From an uncultured archaeon (GTDB lineage: Archaea; Iainarchaeota; Iainarchaeia; Iainarchaeales; CSSED10-239): a stretch of DNA of 64,000 nt. The notes under the pieces were generated by a model. That model had not been told where the DNA came from and ran no database searches. It saw nothing but the letters and a program-made list of their open reading frames with translations. Where the stretch lies: NCBI GenBank assembly GCA_964591795.1, contig CAZQEL010000001.1, positions 12,189 to 76,188 on the forward strand, written 5' to 3'. The position numbers and the translations under genes are program-made. Below are positions 25,201-64,000 of this stretch, one piece after another (the stretch's first letter is position 1; every line of letters starts with the position of its first letter).

Positions 25201-25285
25201 TTTTCTCTTTTCCTATATTTATTTAGTTTATAATAATATATAAAAACTAATGCTTTTTTTAAAAAATAATAATTTATAATTAAAG

Positions 25286-25358
25286 GGTCAAAACCGGGAT
25301 TCGAACCCGGGCCAGGAGCTCCACAGGCTCCTATGCTAACCACTACACTACAATGACC
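25286..25358 (-). tRNA. tRNA-His (anticodon GUG) with an encoded G-1.
   Basis: Reverse complement GGUCAUUGUAGUGUAGUGGUUAGCAUAGGAGCCUGUGGAGCUCCUGGCCCGGGUUCGAAUCCCGGUUUUGACCC. Perfect anticodon stem GGAGC/GCUCC with loop CUGUGGA. T-arm CCGGG-UUCGAAU-CCCGG. An extra 5' G pairs with C73. The acceptor stem as drawn has two U-U mismatches, which lowers confidence slightly. Confidence 0.7.
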
Positions 25359-29292: not shown

Positions 29293-29295
29293 AAA

Positions 29296-29667
29296 TTATC
29301 TACCTGGAGGTTTCCCACCCATTCTTTTAACTAAATGATTTCTAGCTGCATGTTCTGTTGCTCCTGGAGTACCATGAGTATCCATTTTTTTACCCATCAT
29401 TTCTTCAGCTGAACCACCAGCACTAATAAAGAAGAAATCAACAAATATTCCAGCTACACCCACTGACAATAAAATATATAATATATATCCAGTTTTAAAA
29501 ATAGGCCAAAATAAAAAGATCATAACAATAACACCAATACTAATCATTACTAATGCAAGTGTATTATGAGTAACTCTTCTTTTGATAAAAGCTATGATTG
29601 TAAGTATTAAAAATAATTGTAAGATAAAATCAAAATCTTGAAAAAAATTTAAATATATATTTAACAT
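29296..29667 (-). CDS. Small membrane protein (123 aa, ~3 TM) with a charged C-terminal tail.
   Basis: Hydrophobic profile. 3-nt gap to the next gene. Confidence 0.5.
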   Translation of the reverse strand: MLNIYLNFFQDFDFILQLFLILTIIAFIKRRVTHNTLALVMISIGVIVMIFLFWPIFKTGYILYILLSVGVAGIFVDFFFISAGGSAEEMMGKKMDTHGTPGATEHAARNHLVKRMGGKPPGR

Positions 29668-29691
29668 TTTTATTTTTCCTTTATTATTAAT

Positions 29692-36027: not shown

Positions 36028-36050
36028 AATTTATCTTTTTTTTAATAATT

Positions 36051-38339: not shown

Positions 38340-38368
38340 ATTTGACTTTCCTTTTTTTTTAAATAATT

Positions 38369-38743
38369 TTAAGATAATTTAAATAAAACATTAATGTTTT
38401 CATCAGAATATTCTATAGTTTGAAATTTAATAAAAAATTTGTGTAAATTATTATTTTGTTTAATTTTACTTGGAACTAGTATTTTAAAAATAACTAAGTT
38501 ATTATTAAGCACACTAACATTTAAATCATAAATATCAGTAAAAACTGAATTATTAAATGTTTGAAATTTACCATTTGAAAAATTAGAAGAGTCTATTAAA
38601 TTTAAAGGTATACCATCATCTCCTTTTATAACCCCAAACACAAAAGGATTTACATATATTTCATCATCAAAACTATAACTAGCAGCAACTACAAATGAAT
38701 AAAAAATTATTATTGCAAAAAATAAATATAGAAATCTCTTCAT
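38369..38743 (-). CDS. Small secreted protein (124 aa).
   Basis: N-terminal signal peptide MKRFLYLFFAIIIFYSFVVAAS. ORF in the cluster. Confidence 0.5.
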   Translation of the reverse strand: MKRFLYLFFAIIIFYSFVVAASYSFDDEIYVNPFVFGVIKGDDGIPLNLIDSSNFSNGKFQTFNNSVFTDIYDLNVSVLNNNLVIFKILVPSKIKQNNNLHKFFIKFQTIEYSDENINVLFKLS

Positions 38744-38814
38744 AAATAATTACACTTGAATATTATCCTTGAACTATAAAATATAGTTAAGCAATATATT
38801 TATATATATTACTT

Positions 38815-46332: not shown

Positions 46333-46345
46333 CCTGTGTTAATAA

Positions 46346-49267
46346 TTAATTTATTATACATCCATCGTTGTTTTCAATCCATATAGTTTGTGATTCACTT
46401 GATAGATCTCCACCGAATAATGGTTCTGATACTGCAATAGGATTATAATATATTTTTAATGAATTACCAGTGTAATCAATACATGCTTTCTTTTCATTAA
46501 CAAGATTAAAAATCTCACTTACAAACTTAATATCATTTTCTAAAATATTATTAAGTATAACAGAGTTTGATCCACTTGTATTATCTTTTGTAAAAAACAA
46601 TGCTGAATCATCAGCTGAATCTTGATATAATACACTTTTACCATTACCTGTTTTAAAATTACTTGGAGTGTATAAAACTGTTCTTAAATAAACATTTCCA
46701 TGTCTTGTAATATTCTTTGCTTCCCATTCAACACCATAAGACACTGCTTGACTTGGAGTAATTGGTGCAAGTCTTGATGAAAGTGCATGTACATCTGGTC
46801 TTTCAAGATAAGCTTCTTGTACTGATATTCCTGAAAAGTCAAGACAATTACCAATACCTGTCCATGGAACTAAAGTTCCTGAAGTAAGTGCTGGTTCTCC
46901 ACCTTGATTTTGTGGTCCACCAATATCAAGTTTATAGAAACTATAAGCATCATTTGCTTGATTAGATACTTTTAAAGCAACTGGAGTTGCTCTTGATGGT
47001 ATAAAATAAAGTTCTGGATTTGTTTTATTTTCAGATAAATTAATACTAAGTAACATACCTCTTGTTGAACCGTTATTTAAGAAAGAAAATTCATTTGGAA
47101 GACGTCCATATTCCTTTACACTTACAGTATTAATTGTATTTGATTGTGTAAAAGGTTCTGTTCTTAAATATTGACCAGTTGCAGTTTCAACAATTGTTAC
47201 AATATCTCCAGTAAAATCAATACCATAACCTTGTCTTGCGTTATCTGAATCAACACCTACAAGTCCATCAAATGGCATATAATAAAGAGGAGAATCTCTT
47301 TCTGGTGAAATTTCTCTAGATAAAACTATATCTACATTTCCTGTAATATTGCCAGCATCATCAAACAATCTCCATTGATCGTCAAATGTTACATCTAATA
47401 AAACATTATATCTTCCAGGACCTTGTAAAATAAGTCTTCCTGATTCTGAATCCATTGTTGATTTAAAATTAAAATTATTAGATATAAAATATTTATAATA
47501 TTTTTCAATATAATCTGTTGGAGCTGCAGTTATTGTAAATCTATAATATCTATCAAAATCTGATTTAAAATCATCAGAATATCCATCTTTCATTAAATAA
47601 GATCTAAACTCAACTAATGAAGTATCAATCTTTGTGTTCTTTGAATATAAATTTAAATTCCTTGAAATCTTTGGTAAATTACAAACTTCTGAATTTGGAG
47701 TAAATATGTTTTCTAAAATATTATCCAATTCTGAATCTACAATACTATATGGGGTATCCAATATTAAAACTGCAGAAACTTTTAAACTTGTAGTATCATC
47801 TAAAATTATTCCAACATCAAATGATTCATTTCCAACATAAACTTCATTATTAAAATCATTTATATTTAAAGTAATTAATTTTGATTCAACTTGAACATTA
47901 TTTTTATAAACTGTTAAACTTAAATGACCATATGGAGAAGGAGATATATTTTTATCAGCATTATTAAAACCACCTTCTATTCTATAATCAACAGCAATAT
48001 ATCTATCATCATAACTTGAATTTAAAATAGTTAGACCTAAGTTATCTGTTGCAGAAACTAAATTTTGAGTAACACCTGGTGTTGGACAAGTGAAATCTCC
48101 TTTATTTGTTTGAACAAAATCATCTATTTCTTTTAATTTATTTAAAAGTTCAATTGAGAACTGTGTTGAATCACAAAAGATTGATTGTTTATCAGCTTCT
48201 CCTGTTAAATCAGCATCACACCAATTAAGAGTATTTACATACTTATCTGAAATTAATTGTACCTCTTGATTATATCCAAAATCCCAATTAAATGCAATCT
48301 TTGGTAATATTTCTGAACCTGTTTGTCCTAAAAGCATTCCACTTTCAGTAACACAATTAACTTGATCAAGATTAGTATTATCAAGCACATCTCTTGTATA
48401 AGAATTAAATATTAATTTAAATGGTTCAGTTACAATTTCATCTTTTCTATTATCATTTATTATTTTTAAAAAATTATCATTTCCACTTAAAACTCTACTA
48501 ATTTTTATTAATGGAGTACCTGTTGAAAAAGGTGAAGCTAAGAAAGTTAACCAATCTCCACTTAAAAATTTACCATTAAATATATCGTTTGGAGTTAAAC
48601 TATAACTAATATCATTTATATATGTTGATTTAGGATATTTAACAACAAAATTTCTATATTCGTATTCGTTTTCAATAGTTTTTGCAGGATCTTCAAATAA
48701 TATTTCTCTTTTTTGAATATCTAAAACATCATTATTTGAATCTAAAACTTGTGTTAATTTTGTTTTGTCAGCAAGTCTAAATGTTGGTGAATTGCTACCA
48801 TTATCTATTTCTATTAAATTTTTAACTTTTATAAACTGTGCATCAAGAACATTTTTATCTGTTAATAAAATATTTTCATATGGTAAATAATCGGGTATAT
48901 CCTTTGCATCCAATTTATTAACATATACAAAATCTTCAACATGTTCAATTGTATAATCTTTAATGTCATTTGAAATATTTACTTTATCTCTATCAAGCGC
49001 AAAATTAATTTCAACTTTTGATAATGAACTAAAAGTTTTAAATGCTGAAAAAGCACCTACTAAAATTCCATGAACAACAGGACTTAATCCAAATACTTTG
49101 GTTAAAAGACCACCTCCAGAACTAAATAGTGAATCTACTAATCCCTTTCCAACAGCTTCTGTAGCATCATCATTGCCGGGTGCAGCTACAGGCACGCTAA
49201 TAAAAGAAAGCATTAGAGTTATCATTAATATTATTCCTAGGAATTTAGTTTTATTTTCATATTTCAT
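46346..49267 (-). CDS. Secreted protein (973 aa) made up essentially of the family C-terminal module alone.
   Basis: Signal peptide, then a region colinear with the C-terminal ~950 aa of the 38815-46332 product (AFNWDFGYNQ...IFCDSTQFSIELL, YYMPFDGLVGVDSDNARQGYGIDFTGD, WTGIGNCLDFSG, ...ACIDYTGNSLKIYYNP). Confidence 0.75.
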   Translation of the reverse strand: MKYENKTKFLGIILMITLMLSFISVPVAAPGNDDATEAVGKGLVDSLFSSGGGLLTKVFGLSPVVHGILVGAFSAFKTFSSLSKVEINFALDRDKVNISNDIKDYTIEHVEDFVYVNKLDAKDIPDYLPYENILLTDKNVLDAQFIKVKNLIEIDNGSNSPTFRLADKTKLTQVLDSNNDVLDIQKREILFEDPAKTIENEYEYRNFVVKYPKSTYINDISYSLTPNDIFNGKFLSGDWLTFLASPFSTGTPLIKISRVLSGNDNFLKIINDNRKDEIVTEPFKLIFNSYTRDVLDNTNLDQVNCVTESGMLLGQTGSEILPKIAFNWDFGYNQEVQLISDKYVNTLNWCDADLTGEADKQSIFCDSTQFSIELLNKLKEIDDFVQTNKGDFTCPTPGVTQNLVSATDNLGLTILNSSYDDRYIAVDYRIEGGFNNADKNISPSPYGHLSLTVYKNNVQVESKLITLNINDFNNEVYVGNESFDVGIILDDTTSLKVSAVLILDTPYSIVDSELDNILENIFTPNSEVCNLPKISRNLNLYSKNTKIDTSLVEFRSYLMKDGYSDDFKSDFDRYYRFTITAAPTDYIEKYYKYFISNNFNFKSTMDSESGRLILQGPGRYNVLLDVTFDDQWRLFDDAGNITGNVDIVLSREISPERDSPLYYMPFDGLVGVDSDNARQGYGIDFTGDIVTIVETATGQYLRTEPFTQSNTINTVSVKEYGRLPNEFSFLNNGSTRGMLLSINLSENKTNPELYFIPSRATPVALKVSNQANDAYSFYKLDIGGPQNQGGEPALTSGTLVPWTGIGNCLDFSGISVQEAYLERPDVHALSSRLAPITPSQAVSYGVEWEAKNITRHGNVYLRTVLYTPSNFKTGNGKSVLYQDSADDSALFFTKDNTSGSNSVILNNILENDIKFVSEIFNLVNEKKACIDYTGNSLKIYYNPIAVSEPLFGGDLSSESQTIWIENNDGCIIN

Positions 49268-49314
49268 ATATTTTACACCTTTAATTTCATAAAAGTTTTT
49301 TTTAATAAATTTAA

Positions 49315-52300
49315 TTATTTATATGAACAACATGGTTCATAAACCCCATGACTTGTATTTGAACATGCATTAAAAGTTGCAAACACTTTTCCAGTTTCAA
49401 TTTGACAACCTCTTGCTCTATCAGTTCCATCACATCTATAGACATATTTATCTCCATTTGGTTTAATACTAAATGAAGCATCACAAGTCTCACTTGTGTT
49501 ATCCAGAACTTCTAATAAATTTAAAGCAACAGCAGCTTCATTTTTATAAACGTCTAAATTATCTTGTAATTTAGATGATGTATTAAATTTTGTTGCAGCA
49601 TTGTTATATGCCCCCATAGCACTATTCCAAGAATTTTCAGTATATTCTGACGCACTATAATTAGTGCCTGAAAAAGACATACTTTCTGCGCTTGCAAGAA
49701 CTATTTCAACAGCATCAAAAGTCTGAGCAGCAGGGGATTTACTCACAAGTTTTGCAATCAAACTATTTAATTCAGTATTCTCTGCAACAGTAATACTTTC
49801 TTTATCTTTTAAAGAATTTGCCTTAGTAGCAAATGCAATCCAATTATTATCTGCTTCATAACTAGCAGCTAAATAACTAGTTCCATTAACACTATACCCA
49901 TCAGTAACAACATCTACTGTATATGTACTTGAATTATTTGGTGTTACTGGATCAGTTGAAGGATAATCTGATTTAAATTTATCAAAAGCTGATTTTAATG
50001 AATCATAAGCAGAATCTCTTACTGCAATATCAGTACCTGCTAAAGCGTCTTTTAGTTTTTGATTTAATTCATTTAAATCTATCCAATCTTTATATTCTGA
50101 AGAAGTAGAATTTGTAAAAACTAATTCACCATTCTTTCTTATAGTAGTAGGGCTAGTATAAGTTTCAACAAATGTATCAACTTTTTTTACTAACGCCTTT
50201 TCATCAATATTTTGAGGATTTGATGTTACTGAATTAACTCCAGAAGCATCACTATTTTTAAGTGCAGTTTCAAGTGCTACACTAGCTTCTTTAATTTCCC
50301 CCTTATCTCCAGTTGCAATTGCAGTTTTTAAAAAAGCTGCAGCAGCAATAACTTTTGAATCTGTACTTTTTTCTACACTATCAAGTAAACTTTGAGCCTT
50401 ATCTTTACTTGATGAAAACAACTTACCTTGCAAAAGAGCAGATAAAGTTCCAGATAATAATCCGTCTCTTAAAAAAGAAACAAAAGCCATTTGCCACTTA
50501 GCATTATCAGCAACTTTGAATGTTCCGTTAACTTCTGTACCATAACATAAATTGATTATGTTTGTAGTATCATAGGCAGCAGCATTCATCATAAGGCCTG
50601 TATTTTCAGAATAATCTGATCTATATAAATCAAACTCATATCTTTCAAGATCAATACAATAATCTTGAGGTCTTACATAAACTTTTATTTTTTTAATTAA
50701 ATTTTCTGTTTGTCTAGAGTCAGTCATACCACTGTATACATTTAAGATATATGCACCAGGTGTAGCACCCATAGATTTCACAGTAACATTTTCACTTGTG
50801 CCTGATGCAGGAACTGTAATTTCGTTTCTAGGAGTTACAATTAAACCCTTACAATCATCACATGAAAGTCTATAGGTTATATCAGTAGGACATGCTTTAT
50901 TTTCAATAGTAAATTCATCAGCAATTTGTCCAACATTTAAAGTGTTCTTTGAAAATACAGCACAATCTCTAAGATTTGTAACATCAATTTCAAATGCAAC
51001 TTCAGTTAATAATTCTTGGTTTCCTGTTCCAGTACTGTTTAAAGATCTAAATTGAATTGTTCCTTTTACAGTTCCTTTCATTCTACCAATTGGTTCGTAT
51101 TTTAAAATAACAGGATAACTTCTATCTCTGTCAAAAGTATCTAAAAGATTTCTATAGTTACCATGTGTAAGTTCTACAAATCTATTATCTATACTAACTA
51201 CAAATTTACCTTGAGGATTAGATTCAAACAGAACTCTTGCTTCAAGACCACCTGATAAAGGCATATTCTTTCCGTTAATTGTACAAGTGTTATTAATCAT
51301 AAATGTAGTTTCAACTGGTTTATCTAAAGATACTTCTTTCCAGAAAGTATTAGATACTGCAAGACAATTTGCATTATCAAGCATTCCATCAAATCCAATA
51401 TTAATTGTTATTGGTATTTCAGTAACCCATTTATTATCTCCACTTGCAAGAACAATACTAAGTCTTGATGATAAGTTTTGAACTTCACTAATTGTTTCTG
51501 CTCTAGGATTTAAACTTATTTTTAATGGTATTTGTTTTGAAGAATCTGTGTTATCAGGAAAATCTGAAAGTGTATCAAATCCTTTCACAACAGTTCCCAC
51601 ACTATTTAATAAATCATTATTTATGCTTAAAACATCTACAACAGTTAAATTTTTACCTTTTATTTCTAAACTTTCAATTGTTAAGTCAATTGGTGAAATA
51701 TTACTTATTGTAAAGTTTTCTGTTTTTTGTTTTTCATTAAATATATTTAATGAATATGCTAATTTTTTAGGTGTTATTTTAAATAATTTATCTGTTGCTT
51801 TCATATCTGTAATACTTGTTTCGTATTCAGGAGAAGTAACATAAACATATATAACATCATTTGGGCCTTGTGCAGGGATTTGACTAACTGTAATTTCTCC
51901 TGTTACAGGTATTGGTAATGGACCTTTAATAATGTCTTTAAATTTATCTTTAATAGTTACAGTAGCATCTCTTACTGGAAGTAAAGTTGATGCATCTTTT
52001 TCTTTAATCAATAAATTAAAATTTTTACCTGATGGAATTATTTGTGGATCAACTGTAACTTTGAATGTTTTATCAGAAGACACATCAATAAATAATTGAT
52101 TTACAAATTTAATTTTTTGATCAGAAATAAACTTAATTGAAAGATTTCTAGTACCTTTAAGTTTAGGCATAAATGTTATTTCACCAGTAACTTTTTGTCT
52201 TTGTAAAAGTTGAGTTATACCAATATCAAACTCATAGGCAATTGGATTACTTTCCTCATATACTCCACCATTAGGTAGTATTATTTTTATGTTTTTAAAA

Positions 52301-54903
52301 TCAAGTCCTTCATCTATATTTTCTAATATAAATCTTGAAGATAAATATCTTGATTCTGGTGAATTATTTGTTAATGTAAAAGTATATTTATATTTTTTAT
52401 TTGGTTTTGCTCCAAAACCATCTGTTACTTCATATCTTAAATCATCTAAAGTGTCAACTATATTTGAAGAAAAACAAAAATCTGTTGAACAAATAAGTTC
52501 GTCACCAACACCATAGGTCATACTTTCATAAACATCATAGTATTCTACATTTTCATTAGGACCTAAATACTCACTGTATGTTTCATAATCATCATTATTA
52601 TTAAAACCATAACCTAATGCAAATATTTTAATTTCCTCACCAAATGCAGCAATATCTTTAACATTTATTGTTGCTGCAATTTCATATGAGTTATAGAAAC
52701 CTAATATTCCAGAATAATCTATAGGTCCTTTTTTTAAAGTTGCTTGAACCCATTTAGAATTACCTTCAGTTGAACTATCATCATCACTAAAACCTTCACT
52801 TTCATGAGGAGCATTTAAATTAAATTGTGTATATTTTAAAACACTATCAATATATGGTACATCAATATTTTTAATGAAAATATTATCATTTTCAATCATT
52901 GAACTTGTACCTGTTCTTAACATAAAACCAATTTCATCAAAACTATCGTCACCAGTTCTATTTTGTGGAACTAAAAAATTGTATCTAACTTCATAGTCAG
53001 TACCTGCTGTAAGATTATCTTTAACTTCTTGCCCTTCTTTATATATTCCTACAAAAACCATTCTTGGTTTTGTGTTAGAACTATTTTGACTAAATAAAGT
53101 TACATTTAATTCTGCATTGTTAGTTGCAGTTACTCTTATAAATCTTGATTGAGTTTTACCATAATCTCCTTCTATTCCAGGAGAAGCCACAACATAATAA
53201 TCGTTATCAGCATCAAGGAAAAATTCCATAGTTCCTTGTGAGTTTGTAAGTTCGCTTTTTATTGGTATTGCTGGCATAAAATTATAATAACTAAATCTAT
53301 CATATACATCTACTCTTGCATATGGTACTGGGTTATCATCTTTATCAACAACAGTTACCTTAAGAGAACTTTCATTTATTCCCATTGGAATATTTATAAC
53401 ACCTGTATTATTAGGGTATTTAACATTAAATTCAAATTCTGCAGATTCTCCAACAGTACTTCCTTTAACAGCTTTTGCTATATATTTACCTGATGAAATA
53501 TCAATTACAACATTACCATCATAATTAGCTAATGCTGGTTTATAGTCAGTTAAAAATCCAGTTTCTGCATCATATAAAACAACTTTTGCAAATTTAAAAC
53601 CTTTACCATCCCAAGTTATAACTCTTACATTTAAAGGTTGTAAAGTAGCTGGTGTTATTAAAGTTAATGGAATAACAATAGGATTTGATGGAATTGTACT
53701 ACTTGCAAACACAAGTTTTCTTTGGATTAAATAACCCTCAGCATCAACAACTACGTTATAATCTCTAATTTCAGGAACTGTAAAAAGCACATATCCATTA
53801 ACATCTGAATATTTAGTTTCAATAACATTATTTATTTCAGATTTTAAACTTACTTCAGCATTTGAAATTGAAACATTTGAACCAATTATTCTAACTGAAA
53901 TATATCCTTTAACATCTGAATTTAAAACTATATTTTTAGTTGAACTTTCTGATAAATAATATGTTTGAGATTGAGATGAATAAATTGGAATTATTCTAAC
54001 ATCTGAAAAGTTTGCTATATACTCACCAGAAGCTAAATTTTCAATAGTACAATTTCCTGTACTTGATGTTGTACATGTATCAATTGTACCAAAATTATTT
54101 GTTAAATTAATTTTAATATTTGATAGGGTTGCACCTAAACTATTAGCTACATTAAAAACTAATTTTAAGTCATCAGTGTCTCCAAAATTAATTTCTTGAG
54201 GATCAAGAATAATTGTTGAAGTATTATCATTTATTGCAAAGTTATATTTAGATAAATAACCATCAAAAGTTATTGAATCAATTGTAAGTGTACATTCAGG
54301 AGATGCATCCACTACAATTAAACCATTTGAAAATGATTTAGGACTAGGTGCAATTACACTATTTAAACATTTAAAAGAAACTGAACCTGATTTATTAACT
54401 ACTTGATTTGTTTGTGAATCAATAGCACTAAAAGAATAGCTAACTGTTTCTGGAGTTAATCTTATTGGTTCTAAAGCAAGAGTTACGGTTTCATCATTAT
54501 CTTCAGAAAAGAAAAATTCGTTAAATGTATCATAACCATCTTCTGCAATATCTATCTGATAAGATGAATTTTTTAGGACTCTAAACTCATCAGTTAAACC
54601 ATCAGCATTAGTGTTTATGCTTGTCATGTCATTTGTTGTAGTAACAACTAACGACAGATTTTCTAAAAAGGTACCACTTTCTGCATCAATTACCTTAAAT
54701 TGAATACTTACAGAATCACCAGCTCCTCCATTAGGGACAATTAGTAAGATTAATCCTGCAATTAAAATAACCATCAAAAGAATACACAAAACAAAAGAAG
54801 GCATAACCTTATCTATTTTATCAGTAACTTTATATATTCCGGTTTTTTCTACAAAATCATAGTATTTATCTTCTAAATAATAGTAAAATTTTTTTAGTCC
54901 CAT
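49315..54903 (-). CDS. Giant membrane-anchored surface protein (1862 aa). It has the conserved MGL...FYY leader, a TM segment and beta-sandwich repeats. It has a distinct Cys-rich C-terminus and lacks the family C-terminal module.
   Basis: N-terminus MGLKKFYYYLEDKYYDFVEKTGIYKVTDKIDKVMPSFVLCILLMVILIAGLILLIV. Repeats IAEDGYDTFNEFFF, VDAEGYLIQRKLVF. The C-terminus ...CDASFSIKPNGDKYVYRCDGTDRARGCQIETGKVFATFNACSNTSHGVYEPCCSYK is Cys-rich. Confidence 0.8.
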   Translation of the reverse strand: MGLKKFYYYLEDKYYDFVEKTGIYKVTDKIDKVMPSFVLCILLMVILIAGLILLIVPNGGAGDSVSIQFKVIDAESGTFLENLSLVVTTTNDMTSINTNADGLTDEFRVLKNSSYQIDIAEDGYDTFNEFFFSEDNDETVTLALEPIRLTPETVSYSFSAIDSQTNQVVNKSGSVSFKCLNSVIAPSPKSFSNGLIVVDASPECTLTIDSITFDGYLSKYNFAINDNTSTIILDPQEINFGDTDDLKLVFNVANSLGATLSNIKINLTNNFGTIDTCTTSSTGNCTIENLASGEYIANFSDVRIIPIYSSQSQTYYLSESSTKNIVLNSDVKGYISVRIIGSNVSISNAEVSLKSEINNVIETKYSDVNGYVLFTVPEIRDYNVVVDAEGYLIQRKLVFASSTIPSNPIVIPLTLITPATLQPLNVRVITWDGKGFKFAKVVLYDAETGFLTDYKPALANYDGNVVIDISSGKYIAKAVKGSTVGESAEFEFNVKYPNNTGVINIPMGINESSLKVTVVDKDDNPVPYARVDVYDRFSYYNFMPAIPIKSELTNSQGTMEFFLDADNDYYVVASPGIEGDYGKTQSRFIRVTATNNAELNVTLFSQNSSNTKPRMVFVGIYKEGQEVKDNLTAGTDYEVRYNFLVPQNRTGDDSFDEIGFMLRTGTSSMIENDNIFIKNIDVPYIDSVLKYTQFNLNAPHESEGFSDDDSSTEGNSKWVQATLKKGPIDYSGILGFYNSYEIAATINVKDIAAFGEEIKIFALGYGFNNNDDYETYSEYLGPNENVEYYDVYESMTYGVGDELICSTDFCFSSNIVDTLDDLRYEVTDGFGAKPNKKYKYTFTLTNNSPESRYLSSRFILENIDEGLDFKNIKIILPNGGVYEESNPIAYEFDIGITQLLQRQKVTGEITFMPKLKGTRNLSIKFISDQKIKFVNQLFIDVSSDKTFKVTVDPQIIPSGKNFNLLIKEKDASTLLPVRDATVTIKDKFKDIIKGPLPIPVTGEITVSQIPAQGPNDVIYVYVTSPEYETSITDMKATDKLFKITPKKLAYSLNIFNEKQKTENFTISNISPIDLTIESLEIKGKNLTVVDVLSINNDLLNSVGTVVKGFDTLSDFPDNTDSSKQIPLKISLNPRAETISEVQNLSSRLSIVLASGDNKWVTEIPITINIGFDGMLDNANCLAVSNTFWKEVSLDKPVETTFMINNTCTINGKNMPLSGGLEARVLFESNPQGKFVVSIDNRFVELTHGNYRNLLDTFDRDRSYPVILKYEPIGRMKGTVKGTIQFRSLNSTGTGNQELLTEVAFEIDVTNLRDCAVFSKNTLNVGQIADEFTIENKACPTDITYRLSCDDCKGLIVTPRNEITVPASGTSENVTVKSMGATPGAYILNVYSGMTDSRQTENLIKKIKVYVRPQDYCIDLERYEFDLYRSDYSENTGLMMNAAAYDTTNIINLCYGTEVNGTFKVADNAKWQMAFVSFLRDGLLSGTLSALLQGKLFSSSKDKAQSLLDSVEKSTDSKVIAAAAFLKTAIATGDKGEIKEASVALETALKNSDASGVNSVTSNPQNIDEKALVKKVDTFVETYTSPTTIRKNGELVFTNSTSSEYKDWIDLNELNQKLKDALAGTDIAVRDSAYDSLKSAFDKFKSDYPSTDPVTPNNSSTYTVDVVTDGYSVNGTSYLAASYEADNNWIAFATKANSLKDKESITVAENTELNSLIAKLVSKSPAAQTFDAVEIVLASAESMSFSGTNYSASEYTENSWNSAMGAYNNAATKFNTSSKLQDNLDVYKNEAAVALNLLEVLDNTSETCDASFSIKPNGDKYVYRCDGTDRARGCQIETGKVFATFNACSNTSHGVYEPCCSYK

Positions 54904-54943: not shown

Positions 54944-57900
54944 TTAATTATTTTTAAAGTTATCTGGATTATGCCATAATTTTATTTCTGAAGAATCTGA
55001 CATAAAACATACGTTATTATTTTTAATTTCATTAAATACTTGTGTCATATTATTATATGTTAATCTTGGAGACACATTATTCATATTTAAATTATATATT
55101 GTAAATTGATTATCATTATTTGTTGTTGCTGCGAAAACCTTTGTATATTGTGTAAACTTAGGATTTGCATATATTGTTACTTTTTGATTTGTGTTATCAG
55201 AAAGTAAGAATAATTTTGATGCAACATCTAAAGATGCAATCTCAGTATTATTTTCAGATACTTCTATAAGTTTTAAAGCATAGTTCTTACTAAAGTAAAA
55301 TGGTCTTGAATTTGTAAAATTATAATTTACCATATCCTTTAATGTAAATATATAACCTTCTTGTAAACTTGACCAGTTATCAGTAGTATAAGTTGTTTTA
55401 ATATACTCTGGTAAATATGGAGCTCTTAACACATTTAAAGATTTTTGATAATCTGGATTAATTGGCATATAGAATAAAATATTTTGTTTATAATCGTCAG
55501 AAATTCCATTTACTAAATCACCAATAGTTATTGATACATTATTATCATTTATATTTAAAAGCTTTACTATATAAGTACCAGGAACTAAAATATTTTTATC
55601 TTCTGTATACTCAAAATCATATTTTTTATATATATTATTATTATATTTAATTAATATTTTATTATTATATTCTTCTTTAGTTTGTGAAAACTTCTTAAGA
55701 TTAGAAGTAAACACTTGTGGTGATGCACCAAAGTAAACTTCCATATCTGAGTATAATGCAACTTTGTCTTCACTTGTTAAGCCTAAGTCATTATAATTAT
55801 CTAAGAAATATTTAACTGTAGTATAATTATAACCTCCAAGTGAAATTATATTACTACCATTTACGGTTAATTTATGTGTTTTAATTATTGTAATTTCTTT
55901 TAGTTCATCAGGAATATTATTTAATAATGATTCTGCAGAAGTAACATATGCATTTATAGAATTGTCACCTTTTGAGAATGCATCACAAACACCATCACAT
56001 AAATTAACTTTGATTGGGTTTACTTTAATTGTATTATTTGCAATTTCAAAATAAATATCTCCAAGTTTAACAAAGTTAGTTGTGTTACTTAAATCATCTA
56101 AACCATTTGCTTTAAATTTAAGATAATCATAGAATTGTTCTTGATCACAATAATACTCATTACAAGTGTTTCCAGTTATGTTTGAATATTCAAATAAGAT
56201 TTTATCAAATCCATATTTTTCATAAGCTTTAGTACCTGTAAATCCATCTTGGTTTTCTGAAAGATCAGGAGCATTACATAAAATTAAATCTTGTGTATCT
56301 AGATCATCTGAATCTGCATTTGGATCAGAAGGTTCAATAAAACTAAGTTCATTAGTTGCAACTTTAGTATCAACACCAATGAAAGTATGCCCTTGTAAAT
56401 AAGTTTTACTACTTTCTTCATTTATTGCCCATAATTCAAATTTTTCTTTGAAAAGATCATAAATTGGTAATTTTGAATTTATAACAAAATCATTTTCAAA
56501 TGCTTCAACTGGTCTTGTAAAACATAACTTGAATACATTTTTATTTCTAGTAACAAATTCAATACTTACTTTTAATGGATCATAGGTATCAGGTAAATAG
56601 AACAAACCAATATCTTTAATATGTGAAGTTTCTTTAATCCCAGTTATAGGGAAGTCCTTAACATAACCAAAGAAACATCTAGTTACTTCTGGTTCTTGAT
56701 CTATTTGTTTAAATTTATTAAAAGCTAATTCTGCTTCTGGAACTTGTATGAATACAGCATTTCTTGCAGAATCTATTTTATAAGTTAATTTTACTGAAGT
56801 ATCAACAAACTCTAATTCTTCATCAGTCATATCCTGATCGCCAGTGAATTCATTTAAAATATCCCAGTTATCTTTATTATCTAAAATTAACCACTGAAAA
56901 TTATCTGTAAGTTGCATACCAATATTATTATAAATTATTGATGATTGACCCTGTGGTGATTGAAGACCAACACTAAGTATAAACTTTAAATTAACTGTAT
57001 CTTCAACATCAATTAACATTCTTCTAAATGTTGAAACTAAACCAGCTGCAACTGAGTTTGTTTTATATTTATTTAAGTATTCTTTTGCAGAGATTGTTTT
57101 TGAAATTTCAGGATTTCTTCTTAATGCAATTTCCCAAACTTCAATTGGATCATTAGTTTTTAAATCTGTTAAATAATCAACCTTTATAGGTTGAATTCTA
57201 CCTTGCATTTCTCCTACATTTAAGAAAGAAACACCATCAAAATTTAAATCCATTAAATCAAGATAATTAACTTCAACAAGTCTGTATCCTTCAGAAAAGC
57301 ATGAGTTCATAACTTTTACAATTTGGTATTTAGGATCTACTATATTAGAAAAATCTAATTTTTGTGGAGTTACCTGTATACATTTTGAAGGCATAAAACT
57401 TATTGGCAATGTTACACTAACTGGAATTTTTCCAACTAATGAATAAGCAGTACTTGATGAAACTGATGGTTTTACTGAAACAGGAATATTAAAACTACCC
57501 ATTTCTTCTCCACCCATTAAAAGAACTTCTTCTGAATCTCCTGGATTTAAAGAAAATTCAGCGTCACTTGTGATTGTAATTCCATAGTTAGGATCTAATT
57601 TTAAATCAACTGCTTCTAAACAATTATTTTTAATATATGTAGGTCTTACAGGACAATTCATATTATTTGTATTACCTTGTGCACCATAATTTCCTTGAGG
57701 ATAACCAGATGAAAAATTATAATTATTATTATAACCAGACATATTTTGAGCTTGACCAGTAGGATAATTATAGGGATTAACACTTGATGCTTGAGTACCA
57801 GTATAACCTGTTTGACCAACTAAATTATATTGAGGATAATTATATCCTTGTTGTTGAGTATAATACCCAGAACCCTGTTGATATTGATTATTTCTATTAT

Positions 57901-60900
57901 ATTGATTATTCATATTATAACTTTGAGTAAAATTGTTTCCACCATAATATGGATTATTCATTTGGTTCATTTGTCCAAAATTGTTTTGACCATGATATTG
58001 ATTATACATTCCATATCCACCAAACCAGTTACATCCTAAAATTGGAACTGCTTGTTTTGGTATTTCTATACATGTTGAATAATCGTTAACAATTACATTT
58101 GTTTTAAGAGAAGTTTCTACAACATCAACACCATTTATATTTCCTTTAGTTGATTTAAAATTAATTATTGGTGTTTCAACAGCAGAGTTAATTTTATAAG
58201 CTTTAAATTTAAGTTGCATTGTAGTTTTTGAATTTCTAGGCAAACTAGAAATAACTAAAGTATCAACTAAATTTTCTAAAATTGCTTCTTTATTTGAAAC
58301 TGATATAGAAAATGTACCTACTTCTGATTTATTTTTCCAATCTAAAGTTGCCATTATTTGTCCAAGATCTACTGGTCTTGAGTTAACAGTACATTTATTT
58401 TCTAATGTAAAATCAAGAGTTGTTGCTTCATTTGATTTTGTTCTTAAAGTACCTTCAACTGGAAGTATCTTTAAACAATCAAGTGAATCCAGTGAATTAC
58501 CTAAAACAATTCTAACTGTAACAGGTATTGTTACTGTCCAAATTTTATTAAGTTCAGTATTTTTAAATTTAATTAAAACATCAGTTTTAAATGTTTCTTG
58601 AGTATAAAGATTAATACCTTTTTCTGTTAATGTAGCTGAAAGCTCAACATCTGCTTGAGATGCATTATCTATTAAACTATCAGTTAAATTAAATTTTAAA
58701 TCAACATATTCACTAGCAGCTGTTTGTTCAATTGACATTACTGTTAATGGAACATATGTTTCATTAATTAAACTAAAATTATAAATTTCTTTAACATCTC
58801 TTGAAGCATCAAGAGTTAATGTTATTTCTTTAGGAACTGGAGTTATTAATTTATCATCAATTACAAGTTCAATATCTTGCATTCTATATTCATTTTTAGT
58901 TACAATTATTCTTAACACATCAGATACATTTGGAGCTGGTAAAATAAATCCAAATAATCCTTGATCATTTGTAACTCCTGTTTCAATAGTTTCGTTGTTT
59001 AATAAAATTGCAACATTTGCATTCTTCACTGAAACATTAGAATCATCACTAACAGATATCATCATATTATTAGTTAAGAAAGGAACTATTTTCCTAGGAA
59101 CATATTCAATAGTCATTTTCTTTGCAGCTTTTATATCTATTAATATGCTTTTTGAAAATACTTCTTGTCCGTTTGAAACTACAGTAAAATTAATTGTGTC
59201 TGAAACATCATCAACAACCTTAAAATTAACTTCACCTGTAACTAAATCGTTTGAAGTTAAGTTACCTAAACTAATTTCAGAAAAGTCATCACTTCTAAGT
59301 ATGCTTCCTGAAGAAGAATTAATTATATATTCTTTTAAAACAACTGAAGAACCAGTAGTTACTAAAAGAACTGCATCAGGAGCTATTTTTAAGTCCATCA
59401 TATTAAGACTAAATGAAAGTCTATAATCGTTATTTATTTGAGCATTATATTTATCAACAATACTTTTTGATAAATTTGTTTGTGTATTAGTAATTATAAA
59501 ACTATAACATAAAAGAGAAGTACATTGATTGTATGAACCAGTGAACAACTGAACTTGCTTTGATTGTGCATATAATGTTTGCTTTGTACTTGTTGAAACT
59601 AAAGAGGTATCAACTGGTGTTCTTACAACACTTGCACCCTTATAAAATTCAGCTCTATAATTTACTGCTTGATTTGTAAAAGCAGTATCAAGAACAATAA
59701 TATCAGCTTCAATTAAATGACTTCCTAAAACTGGATTTTTAATAGTTAAATTAAACCATTTTGCATTTCTTAAAGTTTTGTTTGAAAAATCAGTTGTTTG
59801 ACCTAAACATGGTGTATAAGTTAATGAACCTAAAACATCAGATTTAGAATATCTAACATCTTTAATAAATAAATTATCTTCTGAAACATTATAAGATCTT
59901 GTAGAACATAAAGGATTTGGTGTTTCTCCAGTTCTAATATGTGCAGTTACTTTTGAAAATGATTTTGTAACATTTAAAATAAATCTTGCAGTTACTTGTG
60001 CACCAGGAGCAACTGAATTAATTTTTTCTCCAGTAGCATCATAGAAACCTAAAAATTCAATTCCAGATGTATTTGAACTTCTTGGTAAAGTAAACTCTAA
60101 GTTTTTAACTTCACTTGCATCAATTGAATATCTTGGAGTAATAAATTGTGATTCAAAATTATCTATAGCAAAATAAACTTGTTTATCTGCTCTAATTTTT
60201 ATTAAAGTAAAACCATCTTGGTTAGTTGTTGTTGTTTTATCATTAAGTATCATATCATTTGAAGAATCATAAACATATATGTTACCAGAATAATTTTCTC
60301 CAAATTCTGATTTTAAAATTAAATTAAATGTTCCTTCTCCAATTACCATTTTAATTGTTTGTTCGTTAATTTCTTGTTCTGAAATTTTAAATGGATTTGT
60401 ATAATCAGAAGTAAATTTTCCTTTAACTGCATCAAGTTTATATGTTCTTTCAGTATCTAAATTTGTAACAATAACTTTACCATAAATATCAGCTGTCATT
60501 GTTTGAAGAACAATACCTTCATCAGCATCCCAAAGTCTAACTGTTGCAAAATCAACTGGACTTAATAATACATCTTTAACTGTAATTATTAAACTTCTAA
60601 TATTTTCATTTGTAATTGGAACTAATGAAATTGGTTTAACATTATCATTTATTCTTAAATTATTTTCTGTTTTTAAAATATAACTTTCGTTATTGAAAAC
60701 TACTTTATAAGAAATATTTTCCTCAACACCAAAAGACACTAAACCAGTATCATCAGTAGTTTCGGTTTTAATAACTACATTTCCTTTGTACAAAGAAGTT
60801 GTAACATTTAAAACAGGTTCTTTTGTAATTGCATTAACAACTTTAAATTTAAGTTTACCAATGAATGCTTTTTCAATTAAAACTTCACTAGTCGCTAAAG

Positions 60901-61867
60901 CACCATCAACAAAGCTAATTTGAACTGAATCAAGTTCACTTATAGGTTTATACCTATCATCATCATCATAAATCACAACATAGTATGTTCCTACTGAAAC
61001 AGCATTAAAATAAACTACACCATTTGTGTTTGTAACACCTTCACGCACTGCTTGACTTTGCATATTATAAATTGAAACAGATACATTTGAAACTGGAACT
61101 TTTAAATCTTTATCTAAAACAGTAATTGTTCCATCACCTAATTTCATTGCTTCAAAACTTAAGTTAACTTCACCAGCTGCATTATCTTCATTTACTTCTA
61201 AAGATTCTAAAGCATTAACTGTAGATGATTCTATTGACACTTGTAAATAACCACAATCAGAAGGAATATCTGTTAAAGTAATTATTCCATCATTTATAGA
61301 AATATCACTTTTTATATAATCTTCATTTCCAGAACATGTTATACTTGAAACTGTTAATGGAGATGAATATAATTCGTTATTTGATTTAAAATTAATTGTT
61401 TTAGAAAGAGTTTTTATTTTTAATTTTAAAGTTACAGTAAAGTTTAATTTTTCACTAAAATTTATTTCCTGAGGAGTTTCAATTAAATATTTATCACTAT
61501 TAATACCTAGTGTGATTTTTTCTTTTTTAACATCTGAGACAATTGCAGCACCATAAGCATCAGAAACTAATTGTTTCTTAGTACTACCAAATAAAATATT
61601 AAAGGATTGATTAATTATAGGTTCGTTTTGATTATCAACAAATTTAAGAGCATAACTTTCATCTGTAGTTGGAGTTGTTCCAACAAACATAAAAACTAAA
61701 AATATTATTAAAAGCAGTATAATTAAATTAAATAATAAAAAAGTTGGAATTCCATGCTTTTCTAAAGGATCAACAATTTTATATAAATTTATTCCTTTTT
61801 TTTCTAAGTTATCAAGAAACTTAAAATATTTTTCTTCTTGTTTGTAGTAAAAAGCTCTTAAACCCAT
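54944..61867 (-). CDS. Giant membrane-anchored surface protein (2307 aa). It has the conserved MGL leader and TM, beta-sandwich repeats, a ~140-aa Q/N/Y/G-rich low-complexity domain and the family C-terminal module.
   Basis: N-terminus MGLRAFYYKQEEKYFKFL...IPTFLLFNLIILLLIIFLVFMFV. Low-complexity ...NWFGGYGMYNQYHGQNNFGQMNQMNNPYYGGNNFTQSYNMNNQYNRNNQYQQGSGYYTQQQGYNYPQYN... C-terminal motifs NEYYCDQEQFYDYL, ILFYMPINPDYQ and ...NNVCFMSDSSEIKLWHNP. Confidence 0.8.
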   Translation of the reverse strand: MGLRAFYYKQEEKYFKFLDNLEKKGINLYKIVDPLEKHGIPTFLLFNLIILLLIIFLVFMFVGTTPTTDESYALKFVDNQNEPIINQSFNILFGSTKKQLVSDAYGAAIVSDVKKEKITLGINSDKYLIETPQEINFSEKLNFTVTLKLKIKTLSKTINFKSNNELYSSPLTVSSITCSGNEDYIKSDISINDGIITLTDIPSDCGYLQVSIESSTVNALESLEVNEDNAAGEVNLSFEAMKLGDGTITVLDKDLKVPVSNVSVSIYNMQSQAVREGVTNTNGVVYFNAVSVGTYYVVIYDDDDRYKPISELDSVQISFVDGALATSEVLIEKAFIGKLKFKVVNAITKEPVLNVTTSLYKGNVVIKTETTDDTGLVSFGVEENISYKVVFNNESYILKTENNLRINDNVKPISLVPITNENIRSLIITVKDVLLSPVDFATVRLWDADEGIVLQTMTADIYGKVIVTNLDTERTYKLDAVKGKFTSDYTNPFKISEQEINEQTIKMVIGEGTFNLILKSEFGENYSGNIYVYDSSNDMILNDKTTTTNQDGFTLIKIRADKQVYFAIDNFESQFITPRYSIDASEVKNLEFTLPRSSNTSGIEFLGFYDATGEKINSVAPGAQVTARFILNVTKSFSKVTAHIRTGETPNPLCSTRSYNVSEDNLFIKDVRYSKSDVLGSLTYTPCLGQTTDFSNKTLRNAKWFNLTIKNPVLGSHLIEADIIVLDTAFTNQAVNYRAEFYKGASVVRTPVDTSLVSTSTKQTLYAQSKQVQLFTGSYNQCTSLLCYSFIITNTQTNLSKSIVDKYNAQINNDYRLSFSLNMMDLKIAPDAVLLVTTGSSVVLKEYIINSSSGSILRSDDFSEISLGNLTSNDLVTGEVNFKVVDDVSDTINFTVVSNGQEVFSKSILIDIKAAKKMTIEYVPRKIVPFLTNNMMISVSDDSNVSVKNANVAILLNNETIETGVTNDQGLFGFILPAPNVSDVLRIIVTKNEYRMQDIELVIDDKLITPVPKEITLTLDASRDVKEIYNFSLINETYVPLTVMSIEQTAASEYVDLKFNLTDSLIDNASQADVELSATLTEKGINLYTQETFKTDVLIKFKNTELNKIWTVTIPVTVRIVLGNSLDSLDCLKILPVEGTLRTKSNEATTLDFTLENKCTVNSRPVDLGQIMATLDWKNKSEVGTFSISVSNKEAILENLVDTLVISSLPRNSKTTMQLKFKAYKINSAVETPIINFKSTKGNINGVDVVETSLKTNVIVNDYSTCIEIPKQAVPILGCNWFGGYGMYNQYHGQNNFGQMNQMNNPYYGGNNFTQSYNMNNQYNRNNQYQQGSGYYTQQQGYNYPQYNLVGQTGYTGTQASSVNPYNYPTGQAQNMSGYNNNYNFSSGYPQGNYGAQGNTNNMNCPVRPTYIKNNCLEAVDLKLDPNYGITITSDAEFSLNPGDSEEVLLMGGEEMGSFNIPVSVKPSVSSSTAYSLVGKIPVSVTLPISFMPSKCIQVTPQKLDFSNIVDPKYQIVKVMNSCFSEGYRLVEVNYLDLMDLNFDGVSFLNVGEMQGRIQPIKVDYLTDLKTNDPIEVWEIALRRNPEISKTISAKEYLNKYKTNSVAAGLVSTFRRMLIDVEDTVNLKFILSVGLQSPQGQSSIIYNNIGMQLTDNFQWLILDNKDNWDILNEFTGDQDMTDEELEFVDTSVKLTYKIDSARNAVFIQVPEAELAFNKFKQIDQEPEVTRCFFGYVKDFPITGIKETSHIKDIGLFYLPDTYDPLKVSIEFVTRNKNVFKLCFTRPVEAFENDFVINSKLPIYDLFKEKFELWAINEESSKTYLQGHTFIGVDTKVATNELSFIEPSDPNADSDDLDTQDLILCNAPDLSENQDGFTGTKAYEKYGFDKILFEYSNITGNTCNEYYCDQEQFYDYLKFKANGLDDLSNTTNFVKLGDIYFEIANNTIKVNPIKVNLCDGVCDAFSKGDNSINAYVTSAESLLNNIPDELKEITIIKTHKLTVNGSNIISLGGYNYTTVKYFLDNYNDLGLTSEDKVALYSDMEVYFGASPQVFTSNLKKFSQTKEEYNNKILIKYNNNIYKKYDFEYTEDKNILVPGTYIVKLLNINDNNVSITIGDLVNGISDDYKQNILFYMPINPDYQKSLNVLRAPYLPEYIKTTYTTDNWSSLQEGYIFTLKDMVNYNFTNSRPFYFSKNYALKLIEVSENNTEIASLDVASKLFLLSDNTNQKVTIYANPKFTQYTKVFAATTNNDNQFTIYNLNMNNVSPRLTYNNMTQVFNEIKNNNVCFMSDSSEIKLWHNPDNFKNN

Positions 61868-62038: not shown

Positions 62039-63718
62039 CTAATTTGAAACACATGCAGCAGTACCAGATTCTCCTGCTTCATAAGTTTTACAACTCCATC
62101 CAGGATCACTTGTTTGGTCTACAATTGTAAATAAATTAAAATAACCATTATTATTTAACGATGCAAGAGGTACAGGATCAAAAAATGAATATTGAGAATA
62201 ACTATCTTCTAATTTCACATATATTTTTGTAGTTTCATTTGAAAGAATATATCTCGGATTAGTTTCATTAAATTCAAAAAGTAAACTAGATTTTTTAGGA
62301 GTATGACATCTAAGATATTGATTATCTGGAACTTGATTAATCACAGAAGTATCATTTAGGTTAAATAAATTACCATCTGCATCAATAGACAGTCCAAGAT
62401 TTGATGCTTTATTAAAAAATAATATATCAAATGTATCTGAAGTTAAAGTAGTTAATGAACCATTAAAATTAATCAATTTTTCAGAAATATTTTTTGTAAT
62501 TTTACTATTAGAAAGCATTTTAACATCACATATTTCAAAATCATAATTAGAAGTTAAATTATTTAAACAAGATAATCCATTTTCACTAGTTAATTTTAAT
62601 CCACCCTCATAACCTATAAAACTTCTATTATCTAAATTATTTTTAACAGTAGTTTCTAAAAGATCTAAAAATATTGATTGAATATGAGATGTTTGAAGAT
62701 TATAATCAAATGAATCTGATAAATTAATAGTAGTTCCTAAAACTATAATTCCATTTCCATTATTTGCTTGAAAATTAATTACTTCTTCAGGTGCTTTACA
62801 TTCTGCTCCTATAAATCCATTTTTAGTAACTGTTTTATACAAGTCTGTTCTCGGAGCACAACTATCTATATCACAAATACCAACTTTTGCACTGTTTAAT
62901 GCATAATTAATATGAGGATTCAAAAAACCCTTTGAATTATAAAGATTATTTAAAATATATTCACTATTTTCTTCTTTTTCAAGATCAACTCCAAGAGCAA
63001 AATTTCTTACAGTTCGCATTGCTTGAAAACCTCTCCAAGGTAGATAAATTCTATATTCTCTTCTTGCAAAAACAGGTCTCTGAATAACTTGATCATCAAT
63101 ATTTCTTTTAACTACAATCATTGGTAATTTTTCATAATCCGTTGACGATAACTTTCTTGTATCTATTTTAAAATAAAGAGTACCAATACAAAAGTCAGAT
63201 GCTTGTTCACAACCAATAACTTTTATTTTTTCATCAGAAGCAATAAAAGCTTTTCCAATTATATCTGCAAGTTCAACTTGATTATAATCAGGAATTGTAA
63301 TTGTATATCCTAAAGGAGGATTAGTATACTCTAAAGACTCAGTTACAGATAATGCAAAATAAGTTTCAAAACTATTATCAAAAAAAATTTTATTAGCATA
63401 ATTCTCAATAAATCCATTCCAATCCATAGTTGCAAATTGTCTTGTAATAGTTACAACATTCTCTGGTTCACTTCTATATTCAGCCCATCTTTCTCTAAAG
63501 CTTACAACAAAAATATTAAATGCATCTGCTCTTGATAAATCTGCAATTGTCATTAGATCTGATGTTTTTGATTGATCTTGAATTAAAGATAAATAGTTTT
63601 CTTCAGTTTGAACCATATTATATACAAAAACAATAGTTATTGATACAAGCATTAAAGCAATTAAGGCAGTAAAAAGATTAAATCCTCTTTTATTTTTAAG
63701 CATCTGTATATACACCAA
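62039..63718 (-). CDS. Large (559 aa) protein with an archaeal class III (type IV pilin/archaellin-like) signal peptide. Candidate pilin-like adhesin or minor pilin. It is the first gene of the cluster.
   Basis: N-terminus MVYIQMLKNKRG|FNLFTALIALMLVSITIVFVYNMV: a short basic n-region, a KRG-F putative prepilin-peptidase cleavage site and a ~22-residue hydrophobic helix. The remainder is Cys-containing and N-glycosylation-sequon rich. Confidence 0.55.
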   Translation of the reverse strand: MVYIQMLKNKRGFNLFTALIALMLVSITIVFVYNMVQTEENYLSLIQDQSKTSDLMTIADLSRADAFNIFVVSFRERWAEYRSEPENVVTITRQFATMDWNGFIENYANKIFFDNSFETYFALSVTESLEYTNPPLGYTITIPDYNQVELADIIGKAFIASDEKIKVIGCEQASDFCIGTLYFKIDTRKLSSTDYEKLPMIVVKRNIDDQVIQRPVFARREYRIYLPWRGFQAMRTVRNFALGVDLEKEENSEYILNNLYNSKGFLNPHINYALNSAKVGICDIDSCAPRTDLYKTVTKNGFIGAECKAPEEVINFQANNGNGIIVLGTTINLSDSFDYNLQTSHIQSIFLDLLETTVKNNLDNRSFIGYEGGLKLTSENGLSCLNNLTSNYDFEICDVKMLSNSKITKNISEKLINFNGSLTTLTSDTFDILFFNKASNLGLSIDADGNLFNLNDTSVINQVPDNQYLRCHTPKKSSLLFEFNETNPRYILSNETTKIYVKLEDSYSQYSFFDPVPLASLNNNGYFNLFTIVDQTSDPGWSCKTYEAGESGTAACVSN

Positions 63719-63822: not shown

Positions 63823-64000
63823 TTATTTAATCTTTTTTATTGAACAAGAATCAATTCTTGTAGTTGGCATTGATGAAATAATACTTGGGTCTTGAGTATT
63901 ATATGGATTAATATCAATTACATATCTTGACTTATAATCCCCATCTGAAGGTTCAATATATTCCATGCTTGCAACATACAAAATATTTTTTGTAAAAGTT
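63823..64000 (-). CDS. Partial CDS with its C-terminal end in the window (...TFTKNILYVASMEYIEPSDGDYKSRYVIDINPYNTQDPSIISSMPTTRIDSCSIKKIK*). The N-terminus lies beyond the window end.
   Basis: Hand translation of the minus strand. Open to the window edge, so it is absent from the ORF track. Confidence 0.4.
   Translation of the reverse strand, partial: TFTKNILYVASMEYIEPSDGDYKSRYVIDINPYNTQDPSIISSMPTTRIDSCSIKKIK

Follow-up and report, generated by a model that had tools for sequence, protein, structure and literature searches.

A pilin-like protein with a predicted class III signal in the giant surface-protein cluster of Iainarchaeota

The 64-kb stretch of DNA analyzed here (the window) belongs to an uncultured archaeon of the phylum Iainarchaeota (Diapherotrites) and carries near its end, on the minus strand, a gene for a 554-residue pilin-like protein (62039..63703). 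Our preferred reading, held with moderate confidence, is that this protein is a stalk/adaptor or nucleating protein that is processed by a prepilin peptidase and forms a fixed component of a cluster of giant surface proteins in this phylum. The adaptor or nucleating role is favored because the gene is fixed between giants and unlinked to assembly genes; since it nearly always lies between two giant genes, its product is probably a fixed part of an apparatus rather than an ordinary pilus subunit. We hold a narrower claim more firmly: the N-terminus is probably a good archaeal class III (prepilin-type) signal, with a predicted cleavage site.

The class III signal and the family that carries it

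The predicted leader, or n-region, is MLKNKRG (M1-G7; 63683..63703, minus strand), in which three of seven residues are basic, and the family logo places the predicted prepilin-peptidase cut between G7 and F8. Directly behind it lies the hydrophobic segment F8-Y28 (FNLFTALIALMLVSITIVFVY; 63620..63682, minus strand), defined by a Kyte-Doolittle scan and by conservation in the family. This stretch of about 21-23 residues starts at +1 and is the sole Kyte-Doolittle peak, and the sole segment of membrane-spanning type, in the whole protein. The combination of [KR][GA] with 22 uncharged, mostly hydrophobic residues near the N-terminus is unique among the ATG-started open reading frames (ORFs) of at least 40 residues in the window. 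All ten cysteines and all eight N-x-S/T sequons sit C-terminal to the hydrophobic segment (residues ~8-28), which points to an N-in/C-out topology and a large domain outside the cell.

We took the criteria for a class III signal from published work on archaeal substrates of class III signal peptidase (SPase III), in which positions -2, -1 and +1 are decisive, a basic residue at -2 is typical of archaea, and a glutamate at +5 is often absent (PMC3387779). The enzyme cuts N-terminal to the hydrophobic H-domain, leaving a hydrophobic N-terminus (PMC6098224). For comparison across the family, 192 non-redundant N-termini were aligned on the hydrophobic segment, with positions -2 and -1 outside the anchoring pattern. 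Position -2 was lysine in 119 and arginine in 67 of these N-termini (186/192, 97%), and position -1 was glycine in 140 and alanine in 52, with zero exceptions. Position +1 was always phenylalanine, followed by T/N, L, F, T/S, A and L. The residue at +5 was threonine (174) or serine (18) and never glutamate or aspartate, so that the family departs from the bacterial G|F-T-L-x-E motif with its Glu+5; a glutamate at +27 was kept in 185 of the 192. The leader ahead of the G/A is most commonly five residues long (median 6.5).

Residues 8-30 form the best-conserved block of the family, with a mean pairwise identity of 54% compared to 17-40% elsewhere. As a control in 44 genomes, we excluded the motif and set positions +7 to +22 against the transmembrane (TM) anchor of the giant next to the gene: mean identity was 0.48 for the pilin-like family and 0.29 for the giant. 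Across all such comparisons within the same genomes, the hydrophobic segment scored 0.48-0.58 and the anchors of the giants 0.26-0.29. The signal thus described is more than chance, and the decisive evidence is its comparative conservation across the family. An earlier note on this DNA had proposed a class III signal from a basic-G/hydrophobic-helix pattern at the N-terminus; that proposal is supported by the basic n-region, the K/R at -2, the G/A at -1 and the helix beginning at +1, a pattern that is near-invariant family-wide.

Searches with the protein, 79 diverse relatives and profiles of the family gave no significant match in Pfam, NCBIfam or PDB sequences. Below significance, 53 of the 79 members matched the ComGF model (best E 6e-5, 16-23 bits compared to a cut-off of 80), and further weak matches were obtained to the ComGE, ComGD, GspH, GspJ, PilV and 'prepilin peptidase-dependent protein' models. 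Every one of these prepilin-model matches begins at model position 1-2 and protein position 2-6 and covers the leader and first helix only. The N_methyl model (PF07963) matched 5 of 79 members (best E 0.024, below its curated cut-off), and one homologue (P0016) has been named by the NCBI pipeline a 'prepilin-type N-terminal cleavage/methylation domain-containing protein'. An hhalign comparison matched the KGF of the family to that of the Pseudomonas PAK pilin in the same register (P 0.006, 15 columns). No member (0/79) matched the GspK (T2SSK) domain in Pfam or NCBIfam. The N-terminus therefore resembles that of prepilins in these models, and the protein as a whole belongs to no named pilin family.

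An exhaustive HMMER scan recovered at least 188 representative clusters of the family at E ≤ 1e-3 and 136 at E ≤ 1e-10. When one genome per species was counted there were 94 relatives, nearly all labelled Iainarchaeum, Diapherotrites or 'archaeon'. The family is present in the complete genomes of Candidatus (Ca.) Forterrea (CP045477.1; locus L006) and AR10 (CP010424.1), and also in Ca. Iainarchaeum andersonii (for Ca. Iainarchaeum andersonii and AR10, loci L046 and L050). Two word-indexed protein searches, one with the family alignment and one with an N-terminal profile, brought up nothing beyond known members or fragments. The family is undescribed and almost confined to the Iainarchaeota. 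Five contigs bearing the family gene carry other labels, namely Thaumarchaeota, Falkowbacteria, Chloroflexota/Chloroflexi and Micrarchaeota (L029, L031, L048, L060 and L078). Synteny with giants was also found in L029, L031 and L078, which suggests that these three are mis-binned Iainarchaeota contigs; it was absent in L048 and L060. What is new here is a sizeable, phylum-specific family without a Pfam or NCBIfam model, its bacterial-looking GFTLFTAL leader without Glu+5, and the invariant place of its gene inside the giant-protein cluster.

Predicted structure and genomic setting

An AlphaFold2 model built from a 26-sequence alignment was confident (mean predicted local distance difference test score 81, predicted template modelling score 0.79), and a separate model of residues 1-292 agreed with it. 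The model contains a continuous alpha-helix of 68 residues (residues 10-77; 63473..63676, minus strand), along which lie the near-invariant E34 (+27), an R-A-D-A motif (58-61) and R70. This is followed by a conserved ectodomain core (residues 78-292; 62828..63472, minus strand), an alpha/beta region composed of helices and a five-strand sheet (160-221), with the cysteine pairs C165/C172 and C277/C282. The remainder is a variable, beta-rich C-terminal region (residues 293-554; 62042..62827, minus strand) that holds six more cysteines and all eight sequons. The core of the family spans approximately residues 4-300, and shorter members (350-400 residues) lack much of residues 293-554.

Five of the six cysteines of the C-terminal region are conserved, including C302, C466, C538 and C551; these four, together with Cys165/172 and Cys277/282, are kept in 73-79 of 79 relatives. 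Such conservation fits an extracellular, disulfide-stabilized protein. The 'lollipop' layout of the model, a long helix topped by a head, would be compatible with a pilin-type architecture; the best Foldseek match to XcpVWX had an E-value of 2.3.

The open reading frame itself is uninterrupted on the minus strand at 62039..63718, and translation from a TTG at its start yields the 559-residue protein, with the N-terminus, that the earlier note quoted. The frame is real, but the length is likely to be 554 residues: the first ATG, at 63703, gives a product that begins MLKNKRGFNLFTALIALMLVSITIVFVYNMVQTEE, and is almost certainly the true start (ATG 63703-63701, stop codon 62041-62039; the TTG at 63718 would add five residues). 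We favor this start because an identical 554-residue NCBI protein is on record (P0001), because the nearest homologues begin MLKNKKGF or MFIKNKKGF, and because the TTG overlaps a GGTG tetramer that lies 9 nt upstream of the ATG (63713..63716, minus strand) and is a putative Shine-Dalgarno-like element.

On either side of the gene lie giants. In relatives the order is a giant of 2.4-3.1 thousand residues, the family gene, and a second giant of 2.3-2.7 thousand residues, which is often followed by a membrane protein of about 160 residues and by more giants. A same-strand ORF of at least 1500 residues was found directly upstream of the family gene in 39 of 46 loci (median gap 62 nt) and directly downstream in 35 of the 39 loci with enough flank (median gap 157 nt). 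In the window, the upstream giant is cut by the window edge, leaving its C-terminal end (63823..64000, minus strand; 47% identity, E 7e-18, to the C-terminus of the 2696-residue giant of locus L001). The downstream giant (54944..61867, minus strand) has 2307 residues, with an N-terminal leader and one TM segment followed by the prealbumin/Ig-like (immunoglobulin-like) domains that the giants bear. The rest of the cluster (29296..54903, minus strand) comprises giants of 1862, 2505 and 2111 residues, proteins of 973, 762 and 124 residues with Sec-type signals, and a small membrane protein. The position of the gene at the head of the cluster, or as the first gene of an operon, which the earlier note had proposed, is an artefact of the window edge: the truncated giant at 63823..64000 lies upstream of it, as a giant does in most relatives.

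The giants have a shared N-terminal organization of their own. All of them begin with a leader of 35-55 residues (MGLxxFYYxLEDKYYxFLD...[KR][GN]-IP[SAT]FP), then a single TM segment, as seen in the window at 54944-61867, 49315-54903 and 38815-46332 and in loci L001-L085. Among 115 non-redundant giants, the proline is invariant and the phenylalanine is kept in 96%; no Pfam model covers this leader, which may be a dedicated sorting or docking module. We considered its [KR][GN]-IPSFP junction as a class III site and rejected it, given that position -1 is N, V or I in about half of the giants and that the leader is 35-55 residues long. One giant in the window, of 2307 residues, has at its middle some 135 residues of low complexity in which Q, N, Y and G abound (57650-58054; residues 1272-1406); the window's other giants have no such segment.

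In 14 loci an archaeosortase/exosortase-like protein of 162-203 residues is encoded directly upstream of the first giant (L022 1011-1499, L046 721-1284, L025 479-1060 and 11 others). Its score on PF09721 is 27.8 bits (cut-off 25.7), and its YLCTG, Arg and HD(I/V)LFR motifs are conserved. No such neighbor was seen ahead of the cluster in the loci of the closest relatives, L001 and L006, and the window stops short of the position. No C-terminal sorting signal was visible on the giants. Small multi-segment membrane proteins of about 120-170 residues recur after the second giant (window 28939-29667, L082 18618-19115, L050 19866-20336 and others), with no family match and no obvious catalytic motif. 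Those with four TM segments were examined as candidates for a minimal peptidase and discarded: their alignment shows no paired-Asp motif.

The wider window has 25% G+C, and its minus strand carries nearly all genes. Its archaeal character is evident from ORFs that fit a split RpoB, RpoA'/A'', ribosomal proteins S12 and S7 and aminoacyl-tRNA synthetases, assigned by eye from size, order and N-termini; serpins and a KaiC-like ATPase were confirmed by Pfam. The serpins are tandem paralogues situated just downstream of the cluster (25737-27002 and 27033-28304; Pfam Serpin E 1e-108 and 4e-113), and both carry an N-terminal hydrophobic segment. A putative histidyl-tRNA synthetase ORF (23898-25343), assigned from its N-terminal sequence only, overruns a tRNA-His gene (25285-25357); its real start must therefore lie further in, around MVEKMILETAKGF.

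Pilus machinery, alternative explanations and proposed mechanism

To assess the link to pili, the ORFs of 85 loci (±10 kb) were searched for GspE/FlaI-type Walker A and A24-peptidase-like motifs. No ATPase or A24 motif was found within 10 kb in the 85 loci, and no A24-family peptidase in the 64-kb window. It follows that the cluster does not constitute a type IV filament locus. The suggestion in the earlier note that the surface system may be pilus-associated gains no support from this search, nor from structure comparison, which returned no solved pilin or adhesin fold. Indirect support that processing machinery may be available comes from published work: type IV pilus genes have been reported in two genomes with a copy of the family gene, Ca. 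Iainarchaeum andersonii and AR10, in a study that applies 'FlaIJK' to the type IV pilus trait in another lineage (PMC8561730). Type IV filament systems have also been reported for DPANN generally (preprint 10.64898/2026.04.22.720090).

Of two further observations on pili, the first adds to this indirect support: an Iainarchaeote contig (L051 16520-17413) encodes a 297-residue protein, without a Pfam match, that has a classical archaeal pilin leader, KKAHKA|QAALEYLITYGWALVAIATIVG (KA|QAALEYL), of a type that differs from the leader of the pilin-like family. The window itself encodes a KaiC-family ATPase (13094-13804, plus strand; Pfam E 2e-62), its only clear plus-strand gene. A part in regulating archaeal type IV pili has been proposed for KaiC-like ATPases, but the one in the window lies about 48 kb from the pilin-like gene.

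The N-terminus could be accounted for without a prepilin peptidase. An uncleaved type II signal anchor, which we judge unlikely, would remain as a permanent TM segment, conserved through packing with the TM helices of the giants, with [KR][GA]F kept for topology or packing. The single hydrophobic segment of about 21-23 residues is enough to span a membrane, the cluster's giants are themselves anchored at the N-terminus, and both the motif search of the 85 loci and the Foldseek search for a pilin fold came back empty, in keeping with this explanation. But such an anchor needs neither the G/A at -1 (192/192), nor the K/R at -2 (97%), nor the invariant Phe at +1, the very positions that define SPase III substrates. 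Conservation of the segment is also much higher than that of the giants' anchors when both are taken from the same genomes (0.48-0.58 vs 0.26-0.29), and the leader lines up in register with several prepilin models independently of one another. An ordinary Sec signal, cut by signal peptidase I behind the hydrophobic region (for example after ..NMVQT, residue 33) to release a soluble secreted protein, seems highly improbable. Ahead of the invariant Glu, a conserved M-[IV]-x-[TS] is in loose agreement with the -3/-1 rule, but the hydrophobic region, at about 22 residues, is long for such a signal, there is no A-x-A site, the predicted continuous helix 10-77 crosses the supposed site, and the discarded part would be the best-conserved part of the protein.

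A different possibility, already raised in the earlier note, accepts the processing and changes the role: a true minor pilin or tip adhesin, loaded into or onto the tip of a filament of small major pilins by an ATPase and platform encoded elsewhere. The class III-type signal and the long N-terminal helix of the AlphaFold model would suit such a protein, as would its size and disulfide-rich head if it were an adhesin. Type IV pilus genes have been reported in Iainarchaeota (PMC8561730), large adhesin-like proteins are found with type IV filament loci of archaea (PMC4858521; preprint 10.64898/2026.04.22.720090), and the missing Glu+5 would parallel the bacterial tip subunits GspK/XcpX. This last parallel is weakened by the fact that absence of Glu+5 is without positional meaning in archaea (PMC3387779). 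Moreover, the gene was never beside pilus assembly genes in the 85 loci, being instead fixed between giants; the sole classical Iainarchaeote pilin that we saw has a very different leader (KA|QAALEYL); and no fold similarity to minor pilins emerged, the match to XcpVWX being far from significant. We regard a minor pilin or tip adhesin as improbable.

Several points also weigh against the adaptor or nucleating protein that we prefer. Cleavage of the leader is a prediction, and interaction with the giants is suggested by gene order only. The matches to pilin models all lie far under the curated cut-offs (16-23 bits compared to 40-80), profile searches of PDB sequences gave nothing, and Foldseek comparisons of both models with the PDB, and of the full-length model with BFVD, gave no match at E ≤ 0.001. 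No prepilin peptidase or secretion ATPase was found within 10 kb in the 85 loci, in a search that used motifs and not hidden Markov models. Finally, any helix-helix contact could account for a TM segment that stays conserved inside a single orthologous family.

If the adaptor reading is correct, the protein would be inserted by the Sec pathway in an N-in/C-out orientation, and a general prepilin peptidase of the PibD/FlaK type, encoded elsewhere, would remove MLKNKRG on the cytoplasmic face, so that the mature protein would start at Phe8. The helix of about 68 residues would then serve as a membrane-embedded or extractable stalk, possibly pulled partly out of the membrane, that carries the disulfide-stabilized head above the membrane surface and is packed against the helices of its partners. 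These partners would probably be the giants, or further copies of the pilin-like protein itself. In an apparatus for cell-to-cell contact, its role would be that of an adaptor or nucleating subunit; it would not be the main building block of a conventional pilus.

A more far-reaching version, which we put forward as speculation with little weight, is an unrecognized surface organelle of the Iainarchaeota. Here the peptidase-cut pilin-like protein, without a dedicated pilus locus, would nucleate or anchor a bundle of fibrous proteins of 2,000-3,000 residues, held together by packing of its conserved N-terminal helix against the leader-plus-TM modules of the giants. Such an organelle, if real, would serve the phylum as its apparatus for host contact or for the envelope, and would put the type IV pilin module to a new use.

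The setting lends these possibilities biological interest. In the study of Probst & Banfield 2018, Forterrea is inferred to take most of its cell components from a host and to make contact with other organisms through its large extracellular proteins. The giant-protein cluster makes up about 5% of the Forterrea genome. The cluster is an obvious candidate for host contact by Iainarchaeota, members of the DPANN, and a pilin-type protein wedged between giants offers a concrete, testable handle on how DPANN giant surface proteins are organized. The family is invisible to routine annotation because it has no Pfam or NCBIfam model, and its N-terminal motif could be used for antibodies or proteomics. 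The small group of non-pilus proteins that rely on the archaeal prepilin pathway would gain with it a large member specific to this phylum.

Comparison with known systems

Like the archaeal class III proteins processed by PibD, FlaK and EppA, the pilin-like protein has a short, basic leader that ends in K/R (-2) and G/A (-1), with a hydrophobic helix from +1; in both, Glu+5 is not required and the N-terminal helix is the most conserved part. In other respects the protein departs from archaeal pilins and archaellins. These typically have 100-300 residues, whereas the pilin-like protein has 554 and an ectodomain without detectable pilin similarity; from +1 to +7 it reads FTLFTAL, which looks like the bacterial GFTLIE type and not like known archaeal leaders; and its gene lies in a giant-protein cluster rather than a pilus locus.

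Large non-pilus proteins with class III signals do have a precedent in archaea: the sugar-binding proteins GlcS and AraS of Sulfolobus (PMC3387779; preprint 10.64898/2026.04.22.720090). As in this bindosome, where the general prepilin peptidase cuts the class III signal, such a signal would sit on a large surface protein that is not a filament subunit. Unlike the bindosome, the system described here has no substrate-binding domain (no solute-binding-protein domain was matched in Pfam or NCBIfam), no ATP-binding cassette transporter among its neighbors, which are giants, and no Bas-like assembly system that we could see.

Among bacterial proteins, the N-termini align in register with those of the minor pilins and pseudopilins ComGF, ComGE and ComGD, GspH, GspJ and GspK, and PilV, and the pilin-like protein resembles GspK in being large and without Glu+5. 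The scores are, however, far below cut-offs, there is no ectodomain homology or fold match, and the organism is an archaeon. The arrangement is analogous to the complex of minor pilins and PilY1 at the pilus tip, in which small pilin-like subunits present a very large adhesin, but the giants of the Iainarchaeota carry N-terminal membrane anchors of their own.

In gene content, there is a parallel in loci for adhesin-bearing archaeal type IV filaments (TFF systems 2 and 4G; Makarova et al. 2016, PMC4858521), where class III proteins and very large surface proteins rich in Ig folds also occur together. Those loci contain ATPase and platform genes, which the giant-protein cluster lacks by motif within 10 kb. 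Lastly, the cluster has been met before in part. A 42-kb region of five large membrane-anchored proteins has been described in Ca. Forterrea (Probst & Banfield 2018) and is the same cluster, represented here by locus L006 from CP045477.1, with identical gene order. In the portions of that paper drawn on here, the proteins of more than 1,800 residues are mentioned as likely factors in cell-cell interaction, and the pilin-like gene of about 560 residues between them is not mentioned.

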